Below are positions 3,140 through 14,756 of a DNA stretch of 64,000 nt, in pieces. Within the stretch, counting starts at the first letter, position 1; every line of letters begins with the position of its first letter. Made by a program: the position numbers and the translations under genes. This DNA comes from an uncultured Acidobacteriota bacterium. GTDB lineage: Bacteria; Acidobacteriota; Polarisedimenticolia; Polarisedimenticolales; Polarisedimenticolaceae. The notes beneath the pieces are model-generated. The model was not told where the DNA came from, made no database searches, and was given only the letters and a program-made list of their open reading frames with translations. The DNA lies in NCBI GenBank assembly GCA_963824225.1, contig CAWGOF010000003.1, forward strand, positions 3,040,847 through 3,104,846, in the 5' to 3' direction.

Positions 3140-5416
3140 GTGGAAGACGACCGTCGAGAGTCGGCGCCGGCCGGAGACCGGACCTGGGTCCAGGGCTCGG
3201 GCGCGAGCGCCGCGCGCACGGACGAGACGATCGGCAACTACCGTGTGCTGCGCACGCTCGGCGAGGGCGGAATGGGCCTGGTCTACGAGGCCGAGCAGGT
3301 CCGCCCGGTCCGCCGGCGCGTGGCGCTGAAGGTCATCCGCACCGGGCTCGAGGGGGACGACATCCGCCTGCGCTTCGAGTCCGAGCGCCAGGCGCTGGCG
3401 CTGATGGATCACCCGGCGATCGCCCGCGTGTTCGACGCCGGGGTCACGGCCGAGGGTCGACCGTTCTTCGCCATGGAGCTGGTCGACGGCGTGCCGATCA
3501 CGGAGCTGTGCGACCGCGAGCGGCTCGACCTGAAGGAGCGGTTGCGCCTCTTCGCCCTGGTCTGCGACGGCGTCCAGCACGCGCACCAGAAGGGGATCAT
3601 CCACCGCGACATCAAGCCATCGAACGTCCTGGTCGCCGGGTCGGGCGCCGAGCGCTCGATCAAGATCATCGACTTCGGTGTGGCCAAGGCCACGACCGAG
3701 CGCCTGACCGACCGGACGTTCATGACCGAGATGGGCCAGCTCGTCGGCACGCCGCAGTACATGAGCCCCGAGCAGGCCGACATGCGCGGCCTGGACATCG
3801 ACACGCGGACCGACGTGTACCTGCTCGGCACGCTGCTCCACGAGCTGCTCACGGGCTGCCTGCCGTTCGACCCGCGGCTGCTCCACGAGCGCGGCCTGAC
3901 CGAGTACCGCCGGCAGGTGGTGGAGGTCGACCCGCTGCGCCCGAGCGAGCGGCTGGCCAAGCTCGAGCCCGCGGCGGCGCGCGAGGCCGCGCAGCTCCGC
4001 TCGACCGAGCCACTGGCGCTCGTGCGCGCGCTGCGCGGCGATCTCGACGCGATCACGGTCAAGGCGCTCGAGAAGGACCGGGCGCAGCGCTACGCCTCGG
4101 CGTCCGAGCTCGCCGCAGACGTCGGGCGGTTCCTGCGCAACGAGCCGGTGACGGCGACGCCGCCGAGCGGCCTGTACCAGCTGCGGAAGTTCGCCCGGCG
4201 CCATCGCGTGGGCGTCGCCTTCGCCTCGGTCGTGGTCGTGCTGCTCGCCGGTTTCGGCGTGTCGATGGCGGTCTACGCCTCGGCCCTCGCGCGGGCGCGC
4301 GATCGCGCGGAGAGCCAGACCCAGGCCGCGAACCAGGTGGCGGGCTACCTGGTCGACCTGTTCGACAGCAGCGATCCGGAGAAGGCGGACCGCTCGACCG
4401 TGACCGTCCTCCAGGTCCTGCACCAGGGCCGGGACCGGATCAAGGACCTCGCCGGGCAGCCGGTGCTCCAGGCCCGGATGCTGCGCACGATGGGCGAGGT
4501 GTACACGAGCGCCGGATTCCTCGAGGAAGCGCGCCCGCTCCTCGAGGATGCGCTGCGCATCAGGCGGGAGCAGCTAGAGCGCGAGCAACAGGGGGTCACC
4601 GCGCTCGACGTGGCGGAGGCCGAGACGAGCCTGGCCGGCCTGCTCGTGCAGCTCGGGGAATACGACCGCGTGCAGTCGCTCTACGCGGACGCGCTGGCCA
4701 CGCGCGAAGCCGAGCTCGGTCCGAACGACCTCGAGGTCGCGCGGAGCATGACCAACCTGGCGAACATCTTGGGCCTGACCGGCCGGGACGCAGAGGCGGA
4801 GGAGCTGCACCGGAAGGCGTTCGAGATCCGCGAGAGAACGCTCGAGCCGGACGACCCCGAGATCGCGACGAGCCGGGCGAACCAGGCGATGCACCTCGAG
4901 CGCGCGGGCAACTACGCCGAGGCGCGACCGCTCTACGAGCGAGCGCTGGCCACCTGGCGCCGGGTCGACCCGCCGAACGTCCCGCGGACGCTCGAGCGGC
5001 TCGGTTGCGTCGCCGAGGCCGAGGGCGACCTGCCGACCGCCGTTCGTTACCACGAGCAGGCGCTCGAGCTGCGCCGCTCGATCTACGGGAGCGATCACAG
5101 CGACGTGGCCAAGAGCCTGCTCGCGCTCGCGACGCTGAGCGCGCGGCAGGGCGACACGGCTCGGGCGACGGCGCTCCACGACGAGGCGCACGCGATCTAC
5201 GAGCGCGCGCACCAGCTCGACACGCCGATCGTCCAGTACCAGGAGGCGGGCTACCTGGCGACGGTCGGCCGCACGGCCGAGGCCGTGGAGCTTCTGCGCC
5301 TGGCGGTCGTCGACGGCGGCTACGCGAACGCGAACGAGCTCCTGCGCGACGTGCGCTTCCGCCCGCTCGCGGCAGATCCGGGGTTCCAGGCCATCGTCGC
5401 CGCCGCCAAGAAGTAA
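3140..5416 (+). CDS. Ser/Thr protein kinase with C-terminal TPR repeats
   Basis: 758 aa; GEGGMGLVYEA...ALKVI...HRDIKPSNVLV...DFGVAK...PQYMSPE kinase motifs, TM segment, then multiple TPR-like repeats (AEAEELHRKAFEIRE... etc.). Confidence 0.85.
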   Translation: MEDDRRESAPAGDRTWVQGSGASAARTDETIGNYRVLRTLGEGGMGLVYEAEQVRPVRRRVALKVIRTGLEGDDIRLRFESERQALALMDHPAIARVFDAGVTAEGRPFFAMELVDGVPITELCDRERLDLKERLRLFALVCDGVQHAHQKGIIHRDIKPSNVLVAGSGAERSIKIIDFGVAKATTERLTDRTFMTEMGQLVGTPQYMSPEQADMRGLDIDTRTDVYLLGTLLHELLTGCLPFDPRLLHERGLTEYRRQVVEVDPLRPSERLAKLEPAAAREAAQLRSTEPLALVRALRGDLDAITVKALEKDRAQRYASASELAADVGRFLRNEPVTATPPSGLYQLRKFARRHRVGVAFASVVVVLLAGFGVSMAVYASALARARDRAESQTQAANQVAGYLVDLFDSSDPEKADRSTVTVLQVLHQGRDRIKDLAGQPVLQARMLRTMGEVYTSAGFLEEARPLLEDALRIRREQLEREQQGVTALDVAEAETSLAGLLVQLGEYDRVQSLYADALATREAELGPNDLEVARSMTNLANILGLTGRDAEAEELHRKAFEIRERTLEPDDPEIATSRANQAMHLERAGNYAEARPLYERALATWRRVDPPNVPRTLERLGCVAEAEGDLPTAVRYHEQALELRRSIYGSDHSDVAKSLLALATLSARQGDTARATALHDEAHAIYERAHQLDTPIVQYQEAGYLATVGRTAEAVELLRLAVVDGGYANANELLRDVRFRPLAADPGFQAIVAAAKK

Positions 5417-5478: not shown

Positions 5479-7395
<1,917 letters not shown>

Positions 7396-7520
7396 GGGTC
7401 GGCAGCTCTCCCCTGCAGGTGGCGTCGGCGGAGCCAGCTTCCCGGGGCTGGTCCCGGCGTCCCCTAATCTACCGCGGTCGGGCGCGGGCGGCGGAACCGC
7501 GGGGTCGAGGACGCGAAAAA

Positions 7521-7569
7521 AGCGCGGAGGCGGATTCCCCCTGAGGTCACCGCCTCCGCGAACAGGGGA
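7521..7569 (-). terminator. intrinsic-terminator-like hairpin in leader between sigma54 promoter B and the activator gene
   Basis: minus-strand reading: GCGGAGGCGG-(16 nt loop)-CCGCCTCCGCG followed by CTTTTTTCGCG; same stem sequence as hairpin at 14712-14745. Confidence 0.55.
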
Positions 7570-7628
7570 GTGTGGATGAAGCGACGTCGATGGTTGCGGC
7601 ATTTCGAATTCCCTCGGCTCCTGGAAGC

Positions 7629-7644
7629 AGCAAGGCAAATGCCA
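7629..7644 (-). promoter_or_regulatory. sigma54 (-24/-12) promoter B
   Basis: minus-strand TGGCATTTGCCTTGCT = GG-N10-GC matching TGGCAC-N5-TTGCW consensus; ~235 nt upstream of activator start. Confidence 0.6.
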
Positions 7645-7695
7645 GAGCGCCACGCGCGCAAAACCCAGCGAATCCTTGGCTGCGGGGCGGGGAGC

Positions 7696-7711
7696 CTATC
7701 CGAACGGATAG
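7696..7711. promoter_or_regulatory. palindromic upstream-activator-site-like motif CTATCCG-AA-CGGATAG
   Basis: perfect palindrome 52 bp upstream of promoter B; same motif at 8541-8556 and 14576-14589. Confidence 0.5.
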
Positions 7712-7813: not shown

Positions 7814-7888
7814 TCAGCGGATGTAGCTCTTGCGGGGCGGAAGGGCGACGGACTCGGCACCGGCTTTGATCTGGCTCTTGGTCTTCAT
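7814..7888 (-). CDS. 24-aa peptide, copy 1 of 6 (MKTKSQIKAGAESVALPPRKSYIR)
   Basis: ATG at 7886-7888 preceded by GGAGAGA; TGA stop; unit of a 100-bp tandem repeat. Confidence 0.6.
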   Translation of the reverse strand: MKTKSQIKAGAESVALPPRKSYIR

Positions 7889-8468: not shown

Positions 8469-8540
8469 GGCTCAGAAGCGGGAAAACCGCTCGATCGCTA
8501 TCCGTTAGGTTCTCGCGCGGGGGTCGCGCGGCGGTTCGAG

Positions 8541-8556
8541 CTATCCGAGCGGATAG
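8541..8556. promoter_or_regulatory. palindromic UAS-like motif CTATCCG-AG-CGGATAG (plus half-site CTATCCG at 8498-8504)
   Basis: perfect palindrome ~73 bp upstream of promoter C, position typical for bEBP binding. Confidence 0.5.
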
Positions 8557-8562
8557 CGCGAC

Positions 8563-10713
8563 CTACGGATGGGCGATCACGAGGAGCGTCGGCGCGCGCT
8601 CGAGCACGCAGGTCATGCAGCGGCGCAGGCTCTCGGGGTCGAGCGCGGCGAAGCTCTCGTCGAGCACGACGAGCTCGGCGCGCTGGAGCAGCGCGCGGGC
8701 GATGTACACGCGGCTGCGCTCGCCGTGCGAGAGCTGCCAGCCGGTCTCGCCGACCATCTGCAGCAGGCCCGCGGGCATGCGATCGAGGAGCGGGCCGAGG
8801 CCCAGCTCGCGGCACACCTTGTCCGCCTCGGCCAGGTCGTCGACGTGGGCCGGCCAGCCGCGGCCCATCAGCAGGTTGAACGCGAGCGTTCCTGTGAGCA
8901 CGTGGTTCTCGTGGAACTGCGGCGCCGTGGCGATGCGCGAGCGCCAGGCCGGGATGCCGAGCGTCGCCCGATCGAGGCCGCCGAGGAGCACGAGCCCCGA
9001 TCCGGGCTGGCGCAGGCCGGCGACGATCGAGGCCAGAGTCGACTTCCCGCCGCCCGATGGCCCCTCGAGCAGCACGCGGTCGCCGGGATCGATGCGCAGC
9101 GAGCAGCCGCGGAGCACGGGCTCGCCGCGGTCGACGTAGCGGAACACGACGTCCGACGCCGAGACGAGCGGCCCCGCCGCGTCCGCCGCGGCGGCGCCCT
9201 TCGCGCGCTCCGCGGCGGCGGTCGCCGCAGCGGCGGCGCGGGGCGGGCGGACGATCTGGGGTCGCGCGGCCGCGCGGAAGAGCGGGGCGATCGCGCGCCA
9301 GGCCACGATCGCCCCGGCGACGTGCCGCGCGCCGCCGGCGAGGCGCGAGAGCGCCTGGTGCGCCAGGAACACGCCGCCGAGCCCGATCGCGAGCTCCTCG
9401 ACCGACGCCGTGCCGCGCACGAACGCCGGCGCGAGGCCGGCGAGACCGACGGCGAGCCAGCCGGTCGGGATCGCGAGCGACAGCGTGGCGCCCGTGCGAT
9501 CGAGATGCCGCGACCGCGCGAGCAGCCGATCGAGCGCCTCGTCCTCGCCCGCATGCCAGCGCGAGCGCGACTCCTGGGCCAGGCGCGTGCGATGGCCGAC
9601 GAGCCGCTCGACGAGGTCGTGCGTCAGGCCGACGCGCGTCCCGGTCCAACCCTCGCGTGCCCCGAGGTAGCGCAGGCCGACGAGCAGGGTCAGCGCGACC
9701 CAAGAGAACAGCGCGAGGACGTGGAGCACGCCCCCGGCCCCGAACGCCAGGACCAACGCCGCGGCGAAGATCTCGATCCCGGCGAGGATGCCGACGAGAC
9801 CCCCGCTGATGGCGAGCGACTCGACCGCTTCGGACTCGATCACCTGGCCGAGGAGCTGGCCCACGCCGCGATGCCGGATCTCCTCGGGCTCGAGGCGCAG
9901 CGCGGCGGCGAGCAGCCGGCGCTTGATCAGACCGCCCGCGGCGAGGGCGACGAGGCCCTGGCACCAGCTCGCGAGCATGCCCAGCGGAACGAGCGTCAGG
10001 AGGATCAGGGCCCAGGCGACGAGCCAGCCCGCATCGAGCCGGCCCTCGAGCGCGCCGCGGCCGATCGTCCACCACGACAGGATCCACAGCGCGCAGCTCG
10101 ACGCGTAGGCCAGGACCAGGCCGCCGAGGGCGCGCGGGAGGCCGATCCCGCGCAGCTGGTCGAGGAAGTCGGCCGACGGCGGAAGCGCGATGCTCCACAC
10201 GCCGTCGATCGGCTCCGTGCCGAGCCGCTCGCCGAGAAGCGCGTTCACCGAGCGCGCGCGGCGACCGTGTGGCACCCCGGCGCTCTCGAGGAGCCGGGCG
10301 ATCTCCACGCGCGTCGAGGCTTCGAGCGCTGAGACCTTCTCGCCGAGGACGTCGTCGATCGCGACCCACACGCGCGATCCGTCGGGCGCGAGGAGCTCGA
10401 CGCGGCGGCGGCTCCCGCGCAGGACGACGAGAAGCGCGGCGACAGCAGCGCCGATGCGCACGAGCGCCGGTCCGCTCGTGCGGAGCCACCGCGCGAGCTC
10501 GGCGTGCGACAGGCCGAGCTCGTCGATCTCGATGCCGATCCAGGCCGCGGCCTCGTCGAGCCAGCGCTCGAGCGCTTTGCGGTCGCGCGGCGGAGGGCCC
10601 GCATCCCCGAGCGCCCGCGGCTCGAGACCGGCGTCCGCGGTGAGCGCCTCGAGCGCATCGCCCAGGCGGTCGAACGGCCAGGCGTACGCCGCGATCCCCG
10701 TCGCGCGGCTCAC
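8563..10713 (-). CDS. ABC transporter, fused permease/ATP-binding protein (no peptidase domain)
   Basis: six-TM region then ABC ATPase: GPSGGGKST Walker A, LSHGERSRVYIARAL signature, VLDESFAALD Walker B; probable GTG start overlapping stop of upstream PCAT gene (GTGA). Confidence 0.7.
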   Translation of the reverse strand: MSRATGIAAYAWPFDRLGDALEALTADAGLEPRALGDAGPPPRDRKALERWLDEAAAWIGIEIDELGLSHAELARWLRTSGPALVRIGAAVAALLVVLRGSRRRVELLAPDGSRVWVAIDDVLGEKVSALEASTRVEIARLLESAGVPHGRRARSVNALLGERLGTEPIDGVWSIALPPSADFLDQLRGIGLPRALGGLVLAYASSCALWILSWWTIGRGALEGRLDAGWLVAWALILLTLVPLGMLASWCQGLVALAAGGLIKRRLLAAALRLEPEEIRHRGVGQLLGQVIESEAVESLAISGGLVGILAGIEIFAAALVLAFGAGGVLHVLALFSWVALTLLVGLRYLGAREGWTGTRVGLTHDLVERLVGHRTRLAQESRSRWHAGEDEALDRLLARSRHLDRTGATLSLAIPTGWLAVGLAGLAPAFVRGTASVEELAIGLGGVFLAHQALSRLAGGARHVAGAIVAWRAIAPLFRAAARPQIVRPPRAAAAATAAAERAKGAAAADAAGPLVSASDVVFRYVDRGEPVLRGCSLRIDPGDRVLLEGPSGGGKSTLASIVAGLRQPGSGLVLLGGLDRATLGIPAWRSRIATAPQFHENHVLTGTLAFNLLMGRGWPAHVDDLAEADKVCRELGLGPLLDRMPAGLLQMVGETGWQLSHGERSRVYIARALLQRAELVVLDESFAALDPESLRRCMTCVLERAPTLLVIAHP

Positions 10714-13379
10714 GCGTTCTCTCGGACGCGCCCGTCGTCCAGGCGAAACCTGCGCCACGAGCGCGTGCTCTCGAGCCCGTCCCGCAGCTCGCGCTCGGTG
10801 TCGAGGAGCGCGCCGAGGCGCGAATCGGGCTTGCGTGTCAGCTCTGAGGGTGCTCCGTCCTCGACGATCCGTCCGTTCTCGACGACGAGGACGCGCTCGA
10901 AGGATGCGGCGTCCGAGACGTCGTGGGTGATGCACACGAGCGTCGCCGCGCGCCATTCCTTGCGCACGGCGGCGAGGAGCCTTGCGCGCTGCGCCCGATC
11001 GAGGCCGCGGAACGGCTCGTCGAGGATCGCCAAGCGCACGTCCTCGCGCAGGAGCGCGCGGCCGAGGCGCACGCGCTGGCCCTCACCGCCCGAGACGAGC
11101 GCCCCGCCTTCGCCGAGCGCGGTCTGCAGGCCGTCGGGCAGCCGCTCGACGAGCTTGCGCATCTCGGCCACCTCGAGCGCGCGGCCGACGGCGGTGCCGT
11201 CGGCGCCGGGCCCGCCGTACTGCAGGTTGTCGAGGAGCGAGCGGTTCCAGATCTGCACGGCGGGATCGACCCACGCGGTTCTCTCGCGGAGCCAGGCGAT
11301 GCGCGGGGCATCGAGCGGAGCGCCGTCGACCGTGATCGCACCTGAAGACGCCCGGTGCCAGCCGAGGAGCAGGCCGACGAGCGTCGACTTGCCGGCGCCC
11401 GACGGGCCGACGATCGCCACGTGTTCGCCGGCTCCGATGTCGAGCCGCACGTTGGTCAGGATCTCGTGGCCCGCAGCGCGCACGCTCACGCCGTCGAGCT
11501 CGATCCGTACGCCAGAAGAAGAAGTGGGGTCAGGTCTCGGGGTCAGGTCTTTCGACCTGACCCGCAGACCTGACCCCACCTCGTCCTCCATCTCCTCCGG
11601 CGCACCGAGCGGCTCGAGGAGGCGGAGCGTGAGGTTGCGCACCTCGGGGTACTGGCGCAGCGCGAGAGCCAAGCTCTGTCCGAGCGCCGGGAGGTGCAGG
11701 GCCCAGAAGACGAGGAGCAGGACGACCGACGCATCGCCGCCACGCGCGGCATGGGCCAGGACGATCCACGCCGCAAGTCCGAACCCGCACACGCCCCCGA
11801 GCGCCTCGACGCCGACGAGGGCGCTCTGAAGCGCGACGCCGGCGCGGGCCCACTTCGCGAGAAGCGACTCGTGCTCGCGCCTGACGGCGCGCTCGGCCCG
11901 ATGGCAGCGGATCGGGACGAGGCCGAGAAGGGCGTCGAAGTAGAACCGGCTCAGCGCGCCGACGTGCGTCCGCACGCGCATGTCGCGCTCGACGAGGAGC
12001 GGCTGCGCGCACAGGGGCAGCGCGACCGAGACGCTCGCCAGGATGCAGGCCAGGGGCGCGCTCGCCGGGTCGAGCCATGTGATCCCGGCGACGGTGAGCA
12101 CGAGGCCGAAGAGCGCATGGAGCGCCTGGCGTCCGATCTCGGGCAGCTCGCGAATCTGATGCAGGCTGTGGCTGCGCTCGGCCATGTCCGACGCGAGACG
12201 GCTGTGGAAGTACCGGTCGGGCAGACGCGGGATCTTGCGCAGGAACGCGACGCGCAGGCGCAGCTCGAGCTTGCGCCCAAGTCTCAGGACACCGGCGGCG
12301 AGCGGGATCTCGAGGAGCGCGAGCGCGGTAAGGAACAGCAGCACGGCCGCCGTCGCCGCGAGGCGCTGCCGCGCAAGCCCGAGGTCCGACCACACGTGCA
12401 GCAGGCCGCGAAACACGAGCGCCTCGACGAGCACGCCCGCGGCGGCGAGGCCGAGCGCGGAGACGAGGACCGTCGGCGCAAGGAGGCCGTCCGCGCGCAG
12501 CAGGCGCAGCAGCTCGCGGCCCGCTCGCGCGGGCCGCTCCTCGAGCGCCGAGGCGAGCTCCACGGAGGGGTCAGGTCTCGGGGTCAGGTCTTTCGACCTG
12601 ACCCCGTTCACCCTGACAAGCACGATGCCGCTCGCGGCGACCCGCTCCTGCCCCTCGGGCCCGGCCTCGGCTGGCTTGACCGACCAGCATCCGGCCGGGA
12701 TCGCCGCACCGTCGGCGTTCTCGACGAGCGCGTCGAGGACGCGCAGACACTCGGTCCCGCGCGCCAGCCCGCCCGACCGCACGATCGCGGTCACCGCCCG
12801 CGTCGCCGCGTCGAGCGTGGCGAGCTTGCGCCAGCCCTCGTCGGTCGACGCTGCGCCGATGCGCTCGGCGATCGTCGTGCGCTCGAGCCCCAGGGCCGAA
12901 AGCCTCGAGCCGAGCGGCTCGAGGAACGCAGGTGAGCCGGCCCACTCGCGCCAGTACGCCGCATCGACCACCGACTCGTGGATGTAGGCGTCGTCGAGGA
13001 GCCTCTCCCCCGAGATCCACTTGCGCCCTGTGGCGGGGTCCATCACCTGAACCAGGCCGCCGTGCTTGCGCCAGGCCACGACGAAATGCGTGGCTCCGCT
13101 CGGCGAGCGCACGACGAGCAGCGCCGGGAGCTGCGCCCGACCTGGGAGGAGCAGATGATCGGGCGGGATCAGGATCTGCTCGGCCTCGAGCCCCGCGCGC
13201 TGCGCGACCTCTTCGAGCGTGTCGATCGACGTCCCGTCGAGGTCGGTCTGGCACGCCTCGCGCAGCCGGCCGTAGCTCGCGTGGATCCCGAACCCCTGGA
13301 GCAGGCACGCCAGGGCCGCGGGCCCGCAATCCATCGCCGACGTCTGGACGATCTCGGGCGCGAAGTACCGCGGGATCAT
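10710..13379 (-). CDS. peptidase-containing ABC transporter (PCAT): N-terminal C39 peptidase + permease + ATPase
   Basis: 889 aa; N-terminal QTSAMDCGPAALACLLQGFGI C39 cysteine motif; TM domain; GPSGAGKST Walker A, LSGGEGQRVRLGRAL signature, ILDEPFRGLD Walker B; two in-frame palindromic repeat insertions. Confidence 0.8.
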   Translation of the reverse strand: MIPRYFAPEIVQTSAMDCGPAALACLLQGFGIHASYGRLREACQTDLDGTSIDTLEEVAQRAGLEAEQILIPPDHLLLPGRAQLPALLVVRSPSGATHFVVAWRKHGGLVQVMDPATGRKWISGERLLDDAYIHESVVDAAYWREWAGSPAFLEPLGSRLSALGLERTTIAERIGAASTDEGWRKLATLDAATRAVTAIVRSGGLARGTECLRVLDALVENADGAAIPAGCWSVKPAEAGPEGQERVAASGIVLVRVNGVRSKDLTPRPDPSVELASALEERPARAGRELLRLLRADGLLAPTVLVSALGLAAAGVLVEALVFRGLLHVWSDLGLARQRLAATAAVLLFLTALALLEIPLAAGVLRLGRKLELRLRVAFLRKIPRLPDRYFHSRLASDMAERSHSLHQIRELPEIGRQALHALFGLVLTVAGITWLDPASAPLACILASVSVALPLCAQPLLVERDMRVRTHVGALSRFYFDALLGLVPIRCHRAERAVRREHESLLAKWARAGVALQSALVGVEALGGVCGFGLAAWIVLAHAARGGDASVVLLLVFWALHLPALGQSLALALRQYPEVRNLTLRLLEPLGAPEEMEDEVGSGLRVRSKDLTPRPDPTSSSGVRIELDGVSVRAAGHEILTNVRLDIGAGEHVAIVGPSGAGKSTLVGLLLGWHRASSGAITVDGAPLDAPRIAWLRERTAWVDPAVQIWNRSLLDNLQYGGPGADGTAVGRALEVAEMRKLVERLPDGLQTALGEGGALVSGGEGQRVRLGRALLREDVRLAILDEPFRGLDRAQRARLLAAVRKEWRAATLVCITHDVSDAASFERVLVVENGRIVEDGAPSELTRKPDSRLGALLDTERELRDGLESTRSWRRFRLDDGRVRENA
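11525..11578. repeat. palindromic repeat family 1, copy 2, in-frame inside PCAT gene (encodes ...EVGSGLRVRSKDLTPRPDPTSSS...)
   Basis: ggggtcaggtctcggggtcaggtctttcgacctgacccgcagacctgacccca located between permease and ATPase domains without interrupting the ORF. Confidence 0.8.
12567..12605. repeat. palindromic repeat family 1, copy 3, in-frame inside PCAT gene (encodes ...GVRSKDLTPRPDP...)
   Basis: ggggtcaggtctcggggtcaggtctttcgacctgacccc between C39 peptidase and permease domains. Confidence 0.8.
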
Positions 13380-14521
13380 GGCGCAGCGCCGGCGGCGCGC
13401 AGGAGCAGCACGGCCGGTGAGACGCGCTCGACCTCGACCTCGATCGTGCCCGGAAGGCCGTGCTCGAGCGGCAGCTCGGGGTTCGATGCGCCGTCGACTT
13501 CGAGCTCGACGCGCACACGCCCGTCGCGCAGCTCGGTCGACATGTGCGCGACGCGCGCGCGCAGGCTCCCGTACTGGCTCGACGGGAAGCTCGAAAGCCT
13601 CAGCCGCGCCGGCTGTCCCGGGCGGATCCGGCCCAGCGCGGCCTCGGGCGCGAACTCGGCCACGACGTGCAGATCGCCCGAGCCGAGAACCACGCCGAGC
13701 CGGTCGCCGGCGTGCACGAACGCCCCGGCCTCGATCGGTGCGGCCTCGACGATCGTCCCGCGCACGGGCGCGCGGATCGACTTCTCCTCGGCCTCGCGCT
13801 CGAGACGGCCCGCAGCGACCTTCCCCGCACCGATCTCGCCCAGGACGCGCGATACCTCGCGGCGCAGCTGCTCGATCCGCGCCGCGCGGTCGCGCTCGCG
13901 CGTCTGGAGCTCGGGCTCGAGTCGCGCAGCCGCGAGGCGCAGGCTCTCGGCGCTGGCGTTGGCCCGCTCGGCCTCGGCCGCCGCGCGCTCGTACTCGGCG
14001 TCAGACAGGAGCCCCGTGTCGTGCAGCCGCTTCGCGCGATTCAGCGCCTGGGCCGCGGCGGTCGCGGTGACGCTCGCCTCCGTGTGCCGCGCTCGCGCCT
14101 CGGCCAACCCGGCGCGCGCGGCCTCGCGCTCCTGGCCGAGCGCCTGCTCCTGGATCCGGATCTCGCCCTCGAGCGCGCTGAGCTGCGGCGCGAGCGCCCC
14201 CGTGCGCGTCCGCGCCTCCTCGATCCCCAGCCGCTCGGGCTCGGTCGCCAGGGCCACGAGGACCTCGCCCTCCTCGACGGCGCGGCCGAGCGCGAGCGCG
14301 CTCGACACGACGCGCCCCGACACCGGGGCCTCGAGCGCGTGGGCCGCGCGGTCGAGCTCGACCCGCGCCGCCGTGCTCACCTCGTGCACGGCCACGCGGG
14401 CCAGGAACAACCAGGCGGTCCAGGCGGCCAGGAGCACGGCGCCCAGGCCGAGCGCGAGCACGGTTCGGCCGTGCCCGTCGCCCGCGAGACCCCGCATCGT
14501 GCGTGGGAACTCTTCGGACAC
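13376..14521 (-). CDS. HlyD-family membrane fusion/secretion protein
   Basis: 381 aa; N-terminal TM helix, long coiled-coil (AEYERAAAEAERANASAESLRLAAARLEPELQ...), C-terminal beta-barrel region; stop overlaps PCAT ATG (ATGA). Start GTG 14519-14521 or ATG ~14497. Confidence 0.75.
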   Translation of the reverse strand: MSEEFPRTMRGLAGDGHGRTVLALGLGAVLLAAWTAWLFLARVAVHEVSTAARVELDRAAHALEAPVSGRVVSSALALGRAVEEGEVLVALATEPERLGIEEARTRTGALAPQLSALEGEIRIQEQALGQEREAARAGLAEARARHTEASVTATAAAQALNRAKRLHDTGLLSDAEYERAAAEAERANASAESLRLAAARLEPELQTRERDRAARIEQLRREVSRVLGEIGAGKVAAGRLEREAEEKSIRAPVRGTIVEAAPIEAGAFVHAGDRLGVVLGSGDLHVVAEFAPEAALGRIRPGQPARLRLSSFPSSQYGSLRARVAHMSTELRDGRVRVELEVDGASNPELPLEHGLPGTIEVEVERVSPAVLLLRAAGAAP

Positions 14522-14545
14522 GGCCCGACTCTACCGCACTCGCCG

Positions 14546-14589
14546 ATCGGATAGTCGGGCGGCCTCGAGGCAATCCGATCGGATAGGCC
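14546..14589. promoter_or_regulatory. UAS-like palindromes (CCGATCGGATAG; ATCCGATCGGATAG) between HlyD operon start and sigma54 promoter A
   Basis: two copies of the TATCCG-N2-CGGATA-type palindrome, 30-75 bp upstream of promoter A. Confidence 0.45.
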
Positions 14590-14619
14590 GCGCCGGGGAG
14601 AGCCCCGTTTTTCGGCTGG

Positions 14620-14635
14620 CATCGCCGTTGCTATT
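14620..14635 (+). promoter_or_regulatory. sigma54 (-24/-12) promoter A
   Basis: TGGCATCGCCGTTGCT on plus strand; one mismatch from promoter C. Confidence 0.6.
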
Positions 14636-14646
14636 TCTCTTGGCCG

Positions 14647-14756
14647 AGGCCGAACGAGAAAGGACGCGAATCAGACCTACCCCCTGCGGCACAGCGAAAA
14701 CCCCCCTGCAGGCGGAGGCGGAGCGAGCAAGGTTCCGCCTCCGCGTCTTTTTGTTT
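14647..14756 (+). ncRNA. candidate sigma54-dependent small RNA or terminated leader (~110 nt)
   Basis: predicted TSS ~12 nt past promoter A; no ATG-initiated ORF; ends in perfect 10-bp stem GCGGAGGCGG/CCGCCTCCGC (14712-14745) + GTCTTTTTGTTT. Confidence 0.35.
14712..14756 (+). terminator. intrinsic terminator hairpin
   Basis: GCGGAGGCGG-agcgagcaaggtt-CCGCCTCCGC followed by GTCTTTTTGTTT. Confidence 0.6.

Follow-up and report, generated by a model that had tools for sequence, protein, structure and literature searches.

A conserved terminator hairpin between a sigma54 promoter and a sigma54 activator gene as a candidate limiter of activator autoregulation in an uncultured Acidobacteriota bacterium

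The analysed window is a stretch of 64,000 nucleotides (nt) from an uncultured Acidobacteriota bacterium (contig CAWGOF010000003.1). Its minus strand carries a hairpin, called T2 here, in the short region between a sigma54 promoter (promoter B) and a gene for a sigma54 activator. The activator contains FHA, GAF and sigma54-interaction (Sigma54_activat) domains, the last with a GAFTGA motif, followed by a lid domain, and its nearest named homologues are acidobacterial. Upstream of promoter B, on the same strand, there are six tandem genes for a 24-amino-acid (aa) peptide with their own sigma54 promoter and terminator (T1). Next to them, exporter genes span 8563-14521, including a second ABC protein gene on the minus strand. 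Promoter B with its upstream activator site (UAS), its short transcript and T2 is referred to as module B. A similar unit on the plus strand, module A, stands before a gene for a secreted tetratricopeptide-repeat (TPR) protein. The features are collected in Table 1.

Table 1. Features of the locus; positions are those of the window unless a relative is named.
Feature	Position	Strand	Sequence or remark	Basis
Palindrome, presumed UAS of promoter B	7696-7711	.	CTATCCGAACGGATAG; minus reading CTATCCGTTCGGATAG (7711-7696)	motif scan
Sigma54 promoter B	7644-7629	minus	TGGCATTTGCCTTGCT; perfect consensus; -12 C at 7630, predicted +1 at 7618	
Variable transcript body	7618-7576	minus	relic of peptide-gene 3' end; holds ATG 7602	alignment
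Conserved C-rich block	7575-7560	minus	CCACACTCCCCTGTTC; directly 5' of T2	11/16 columns invariant
Terminator hairpin T2	7559-7524	minus	10-bp arms GCGGAGGCGG (7559-7550) and CCGCCTCCGC (7533-7524); 16-nt loop TGACCTCAGGGGGAAT (7549-7534)	read directly, folds
GC and U6 tract completing the intrinsic terminator	7523-7516 (T6 at 7521-7516)	minus	6-7 U in every lineage	read directly
Conserved box, candidate -10 element	7473-7461	minus	GGTAGATTAGGGG; TAGATT at 7471-7466	alignment
Complement in the activator ribosome-binding region	7415-7408	minus	CAGGGGAG; fully complementary to CUCCCCUG of the C-rich block	
Sigma54 activator gene	7395-5479	minus	FHA-GAF-AAA+ with GAFTGA, 638 aa	domain matches
T1, peptide-array terminator	7786-7752	minus	GCGAAGGCGGGA...TCCCGCCTTCGC; poor U tract; T2 paralogue	alignment, fold
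Six tandem 24-aa peptide genes	8409-7814	minus	MKTKSQIKAG-AESVSLPPRKSYIR; near-identical, 100-nt period; source of the cassette family	
Peptide-array sigma54 promoter	8468-8453	minus	UAS at 8541-8556, half-site at 8498-8504	
TGATG sites	7814-7822; L001 ~9647; L004 9667-9672, 10001-10004; L006 9483-9492, 9714-9717			
ABC exporter	13379-10710	minus	N-terminal C39 peptidase domain	
HlyD-type adaptor	14521-13376	minus		
Two UAS-like palindromes of module A	14539-14586	.		motif scan
Sigma54 promoter A	14617-14632	plus	perfect consensus; predicted +1 at 14643	
Module A C-rich block, hairpin and tail	14696-14756	plus	hairpin 14712-14744 (13 bp, 7-nt loop); GUCUUUUUGUUU tail	folds, scans

T2 had been described beforehand as a minus-strand hairpin with a T run between promoter B and the activator ATG, and direct reading of the strand confirmed this. 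The distances needed correction. The hairpin does lie between promoter and ATG, but it starts about 58 nt past the predicted +1 (70 nt past the -12 C) rather than 50 nt, and 120 nt separate the end of the U tract from the ATG (7395-7393). With its tail T2 spans 7559-7516, and an extra C7560-G7523 pair extends the stem to 11 base pairs (bp). The two hallmarks of a Rho-independent terminator are present, namely a G+C-rich stem, seen in six lineages, and a U tract; the opposite strand has no T run. The predicted RNA fold of leader B retains T2 (-27.7 kcal/mol), and T2 with its U6-7 tract is predicted at -27 to -35 kcal/mol across all six lineages. Promoter, terminator and activator ATG follow one another on one strand, which is the layout of an attenuator. 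From the predicted start site, the RNA ending at T2 would be about 103 nt long, and 74-169 nt in the relatives. T2 is a real, selected element with all the sequence features of a Rho-independent terminator. By itself it is an ordinary intrinsic terminator.

The same stem had been reported at 14.7 kb. The 10-nt arm occurs exactly four times in the 64 kb, and these copies are the four arms of two hairpins, T2 and the one at 14712-14744. The count by itself is weak evidence, with 1.58 copies expected and 4 of 100 shuffles reaching four. The second hairpin could be specified more closely: it has the same stem as claimed, and it lies on the plus strand behind the plus-strand promoter A. Each hairpin stands 70-80 nt behind a perfect sigma54 site and has a T run after it. 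A scan for stems followed by T runs showed that such hairpins are very rare in the window, with only four in 64 kb. Two of them, T2 and the module A hairpin, belong to the peptide-cassette family treated below and have the longest perfect G-C-rich stems of the four. The other two are at 31.9 kb and 35.6 kb.

Relatives of the locus were found by a protein homology search with the activator, followed by contig look-ups. The comparison set consists of six metagenomic lineages, the window and five relatives, whose activators are 96% (L007), 84% (L001), 79% (L023, from the homology search), 78% (L004) and 69% (L006) identical to that of the window. Promoter B, its palindrome and T2 are retained in all five. 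Wherever the contigs reach, the order is the array promoter, two or three peptide genes, T1, the palindrome, promoter B, T2, a spacer with the box, and the activator gene. All 20 positions of the T2 arms are invariant in a five-way alignment, and the arms are also invariant in L023. In the five-way alignment the T2 block counts 43 invariant columns out of 60, and elsewhere in the intergenic DNA the invariant share is 22%. At 4-fold synonymous sites of the activator gene, the window shares an identity of 0.60-0.62 with L004 and L006, with about 0.5 expected from composition. Since the arms are invariant despite near-saturated synonymous sites and such variable surroundings, the comparison indicates that T2 is under purifying selection. 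Conservation of the hairpins in orthologous leaders thus holds for T2 in all five relatives, but not for module A, which is missing in L001. Related activators were also found in P0007/L022 and P0006/L008-L013, and T2 is not present there. The exact activator protein had no record in the look-up. A scan of GTDB representative genomes with a 21-nt word from the peptide gene gave two chance matches and no relatives, and the same scan of metagenomes gave only contigs of the known lineages and L017.

Compensatory base changes had been proposed as a check on the hairpins. The comparison across the related genomes found none, because the arms never vary. In the stem family 8 of 13 pairs show no change, and covariation scored no higher than in shuffled alignments (53/500). 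The only family-wide pair that changes is 20-51, which is G-C, G-U or A-U between T2 and T1. Conservation in sequence without compensatory change, together with the position of the repeat just downstream of a promoter, would suit an operator in the DNA, bound by a dimeric repressor or a roadblock protein, instead of an RNA element. However, the spacing between the half-sites is unequal, being 16 nt in T2, 11-14 nt in T1 and 13 nt in module A (7 nt when its arms are extended to 13 bp). Furthermore, every copy has a U tract after it, on the transcribed strand only, and the locus has no gene for a candidate binding protein. An operator is therefore regarded as highly improbable.

Perfect TGGCAY-N5-TTGCW sites occur only three times in the window, with 0.01 expected, and they precede the activator gene, the peptide array and the TPR-protein gene. 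The -24/-12 elements of promoter B are invariant in L001, L004, L006, L007 and L023, and its spacer is variable. The palindrome CTATCCG-N2-CGGATAG has four matches in the 64 kb, with 0.13 expected, and all of them are upstream of these three promoters. The same palindrome was found at 7295-7310 of L008, ahead of a sigma54 promoter adjoining an activator that is 61% identical. Its occurrence only ahead of the three sigma54 promoters and beside the L008 activator fits an activator binding site, and CTATCCG-N2-CGGATAG probably serves this subfamily of activators as its enhancer site. The operon linked to the activator in L008 is a different one, with a 61-aa protein and three uncharacterised proteins.

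T1, T2 and the hairpin at 14.7 kb, flanks included, align as one family. The modules share with the peptide cassette the enhancer palindrome, the sigma54 promoter, the 5' untranslated region (5'UTR) and the terminator family. The stretch from promoter B to T2 in L004 still has a small degenerate open reading frame (ORF), MKFKSRMAQPLPYSKRSIPR, and this second cassette aligns to the peptide-gene unit with a score of 42 against a null of 18.8 +/- 3.2 (0/500 shuffles). The module B body of the window aligns to the 3' end of the L004 cassette unit (about 1% of shuffles). The module A body aligns to the 5'UTR of the peptide unit (about 2% of shuffles), and its promoter, together with the 5' part, is similar to the promoter of the array. 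In the window, no intact 24-aa ORF with the MKTKSQIKAG leader stands between promoter B and T2, and a degenerate one is seen in L004 only. The common terminator family, the homology of the L004 ORF and the body alignments show that modules A and B are truncated peptide-gene cassettes in which the enhancer site, the promoter and the terminator have been retained. Module B has lost the ORF. U-tract length separates the copies, with 3-4 U in T1 vs 6-7 U in T2.

These alignments bear out the preliminary description in treating the two promoter-plus-terminator modules as paralogues, both with the palindrome of the array promoter. Its further suggestion of a dedicated, duplicated family of small RNAs (sRNAs) or attenuators gave way to truncated peptide-gene units, with T1 of the array as a third member. 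Neither an antiterminator structure nor an Rfam match was found for them. Rfam was searched with the whole window at the gathering threshold and with the two leaders at E <= 10, which yielded nothing but chance matches to miRNA and snoRNA families. A REP-like dispersed repeat was also considered and rejected, as the covariance model matches only T1, T2 and module A in 181 kb (window and loci).

Module A is predicted to keep its hairpin when folded (-29.5 kcal/mol). The hairpin, followed by GTCTTTTTGTTT, ends 24 nt ahead of the ATG (14769) of the TPR-protein gene, and the module ends 12 nt ahead of it. At the orthologous position in L001, the only strictly comparable relative, module A is absent, and the TPR gene is preceded instead by a 37-nt region (3151-3190) that includes a TAGAAT box and a GGAGG Shine-Dalgarno sequence. 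No copy was seen in L004 and L006, which are not strict comparisons because their gene content at this position differs, and L007 does not reach it. Therefore, the pairing of modules A and B is lineage-specific. The TPR gene of the window has no Shine-Dalgarno sequence, and a TAGACT hexamer stands 7 nt before its ATG. Its mRNA could be leaderless, or the gene could rely on read-through of the terminator.

The loss or degeneration of the ORF, the high variability of the transcript body and the lineage-specificity of module A could all be read as signs of a decaying peptide-cassette pseudogene with no present function, in which the hairpin is merely kept by descent. Such decay is very unlikely, however, because the six lineages show no variation in the -24/-12 elements, the palindrome, the hairpin arms or the U tract, although synonymous sites are near saturation and neighbouring intergenic DNA has diverged to 22% invariance.

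The transcript between promoter B and T2 is conserved in one place only. Of 17 fully aligned columns of the body, 2 are invariant, and the length of the body varies from 17 to 125 nt among lineages. The C-rich block, (C)CA(C/A)A(C)GCUCCCCUG(C/U)UC, is the sole conserved part of the RNA other than T2, and it is unpaired or weakly paired in predicted folds. Leader B is structurally unremarkable overall (z = -0.63). Neither the minimum free energy fold nor the centroid fold contains an alternative antiterminator, as the terminator alone appears, and no pairing partner for the 5' arm of T2 was found in the leader. A riboswitch or other sensing leader was rejected. With a body conserved neither in length nor in sequence, no unusual structure and no antiterminator pairing, a sensing attenuator is unlikely as well, and the variable, unstructured leader speaks for a plain terminator. 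The C-rich block and the T2 loop are complementary over a short CCCC/GGGG stretch, and the complementarity of UCCCCU with the loop GGGGGA is preserved in all lineages. An H-type pseudoknot of these two segments was considered, but with a connecting loop of 2 nt their pairing at the same time as the 10-bp stem is sterically unlikely. A transient alternative pairing between them is possible.

In pyrBI attenuation, read-through is coupled to translation. A comparable arrangement can be imagined here, in which a short leader ORF is translated across T2 and the trailing ribosome blocks the hairpin, giving in most lineages an extended activator. The trp and pyrBI leaders also have a terminator between promoter and regulated ORF, and a possible overlapping leader ORF. 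In contrast to them, no mutually exclusive antiterminator was found here, and the leader body is not conserved. An ATG-initiated frame runs through T2 in all six lineages (for example 7396-7602 on the minus strand of the window, 9842-10000 in L001, 10001-10198 in L004 and 54-236 in L023). The ATGs upstream of T2 are all in one frame (7602 in the window, 9842 in L001, 54 and 69 in L023, 9714 in L006 and 10001 in L004), except two ATGs of the peptide-like ORF of L004. In five of the six lineages this frame contains no stop codon and stays in register with the activator start, with spacers of 128, 104, 98, 104 and 134 nt, and such preservation by chance was estimated at about 0.05. In the T2 loop, 5 of 6 third-codon positions vary vs 4 of 12 other positions. 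The ATG at 7602 has a GAGGGA Shine-Dalgarno sequence 7 nt upstream.

Several points speak against such an extension. The L006 sequence from T2 to the activator start has stops in each of the three frames. In the window, the 69-codon extension (within ORF 5479-7653) has a codon-position composition unlike that of the gene: its spacer is flat in G+C at the three positions (0.80/0.75/0.78) vs 0.73/0.43/0.96 in the gene, and third-position values of 0.65-0.84 are intergenic-like. An open frame of 40 codons is expected about two times in three at 78% G+C, and indels in multiples of three can come neutrally from slippage in CCG-rich DNA. Homologues are mostly 620-650 aa long, and the FHA domain begins at residue 7 of the short form. 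The extension has no match in 5.8 billion proteins; a search joining it to the FHA domain gave FHA matches only and no new lineages. Translation of the extension is thus unlikely, but the frame is preserved more often than expected, and an extended isoform may occasionally be made. Translation-coupled read-through across T2 is quite unlikely. The earlier statement that the extension is probably untranslated agrees with the composition and with the L006 stops, but not easily with a frame that stays in phase in five of six lineages. The public gene call at 10001-12133 of L004 (P0004, 710 aa) takes in the extension through the hairpin; it is probably an over-long start, typical of high-GC DNA. 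A stop overlapping an ATG (TGATG) is found after the last peptide gene before T1 and, as a relic, before T2 in most lineages, and the short ORF opened there enters or crosses the terminator.

The C-rich block raises another explanation. The RNA from promoter B, and its promoter A paralogue, could act in trans as an sRNA, with CUCCCCUG of the block pairing to the ribosome-binding region of the activator mRNA and giving negative feedback like that of Qrr on luxO. The -24/-12 promoter and enhancer sites expected of a sigma54-dependent sRNA are found, and the rest of the anatomy is sRNA-like as well: there is no ORF in five of six lineages, the conserved block is mostly unpaired, and a strong terminator ends in U6-7. 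The predicted duplex of block and activator start is -18.1 kcal/mol in the window, within the top 0.6% of local windows. The corresponding values are -18.5 kcal/mol (1.9%) in L001, -20.5 kcal/mol (2.6%) in L004 and -16.0 kcal/mol (4.9%) in L006, in which the activator start ranks 1/18, 2/12 and 1/19 among local gene starts. The block of module A pairs with the same site at -19.4 kcal/mol, in the top 0.4% of 5116 windows. There is also a precedent in the Qrr sRNAs, which are transcribed from LuxO/sigma54 promoters and inhibit the translation of luxO (PMC3730234).

The pairing is nevertheless fragile. In L007, the closest relative, a 24-nt deletion takes out the complement, and the duplex falls to -11.2 kcal/mol, at the 18th percentile. 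The margins over other gene-start regions are small, and G-rich Shine-Dalgarno regions pair with any C-rich block. The blocks of A and B are related and are not independent evidence, no Rfam family matches, and module A is absent from L001. Moreover, the same pairing could operate in cis on read-through transcripts. Regulation in trans by this RNA is accordingly judged rather unlikely, although it ranks second among the readings. A fuller proposal is also unlikely: non-coding small RNAs dependent on sigma54 would have evolved from a peptide-precursor cassette, with one of them conserved and another present in this genome, and their C-rich block would pair with the activator ribosome-binding site. 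If it were true, a Qrr/LuxO-like negative feedback would operate in a secreted-peptide circuit with a C39-ABC exporter, a Ser/Thr kinase and an FHA-sigma54 activator.

The best-supported mechanism, for which the chances appear about even, is that T2 serves as an intrinsic terminator that attenuates or insulates the autoregulation of the activator. The activator would switch on promoter B through the palindrome CTATCCG-N2-CGGATAG, and the transcript would be ended at T2. As T2 is directly upstream of the gene and in the same direction, it would halt most activator-driven transcription before the gene, both that from promoter B and that reading through from the array past T1. The read-through fraction alone would add to activator expression, giving a positive autoregulation of low gain. 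Basal expression would probably come from a separate promoter at the TAGATT box, which could be the activator gene's own promoter. This box is 78 nt ahead of the activator start codon in the window, L001, L023 and L004, and a variant, GGTATAGAGTA, is found in L004 and L006. A small conserved hairpin, CCGGG-N6-CCCGG, follows the box in four lineages, and the distances from T2 to the box (50, 20, 26 and 56 nt) are all 2 modulo 6. The earlier idea that the module could set the expression of the regulator is in keeping with its position before the activator gene and its conservation in five relatives; it could do so by attenuation or through an RNA acting in trans.

Some observations weigh against this use of T2 as an attenuator or insulator. 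Its 16-nt loop exceeds that of typical terminators. The arms are fixed in sequence and not in pairing alone, whereas a structural element should show compensatory change. The proposed separate promoter is no more than a conserved box, and a scan of 5-17 kb for E. coli-type sigma70 promoters found none. Promoter use, termination efficiency and read-through are likewise predictions. A terminator that merely damps a promoter seems a roundabout design, and the strict retention of promoter B implies that the RNA itself may matter.

The closest analogue of this arrangement is glmY with glrK-glrR. In E. coli, glmY is a GlrR-dependent sigma54 gene whose Rho-independent terminator lies directly upstream of the independently transcribed glrK-glrR, and in Proteus glmY and glrK-glrR are co-transcribed (PMC3045617, PMC8745638). 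The glmY/glmZ system with glrK-yfhG-glrR (qseE-G-F) of Enterobacteriaceae shares with module B a short non-coding sigma54 unit, upstream activator sites and an activator gene next downstream, and it has a homologous second copy elsewhere in the genome (glmZ, here module A). However, there is no sequence or Rfam similarity. The activator here is an FHA-GAF protein, whereas GlrR is a response regulator, and the unit here is derived from a peptide gene. No overlapping sigma70 promoter was seen here, and no RapZ-type partner or target is known. The Qrr/LuxO system of Vibrio resembles the locus in its paralogous RNAs of about 100 nt, sigma54 promoters, terminators, connection to cell-cell signalling and feedback on the activator mRNA (PMC3730234). 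It differs in that the feedback here is computed complementarity only, there is no homology, and one copy is conserved across lineages. In autoinduced operons of class II bacteriocins, a gene for a double-glycine-type peptide is also placed directly upstream of its regulator, with a C39-ABC exporter and an accessory protein (PMC3546714). In contrast to those operons, the regulator here is an FHA sigma54 activator next to a Ser/Thr kinase and not a histidine kinase with a response regulator, the peptide ORF before it is lost in five of six lineages, and a strong terminator stands between.

A gene for a Ser/Thr kinase with a long stretch of TPR repeats (3140-5416, plus strand) is convergent with the gene for the FHA-domain activator, also in L001, L006 and L007, and this conserved gene order suggests a phospho-threonine input to the sigma54 activator. 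The 24-aa peptide, for which no family model matched, has a short leader whose last two residues, AG, resemble a double-glycine cleavage site. Its predicted mature part varies by lineage (VTSVALPPRKNYIK, STAVRLPSRKNYV and VTSVRLPKPKF).

For annotation, the result means that 'long' activator ORFs of 710-724 aa in GC-rich DNA are probably artefacts. The locus points to a secreted-peptide system of uncultured bacteria that has yet to be characterised and that is controlled by sigma54, an FHA-domain protein and a Ser/Thr kinase. If the proposed role of T2 is right, a regulatory module would have arisen by the gutting of a structural gene, and a short unit would gate the expression of the regulator, a design with a clear precedent in glmY-glrKR.

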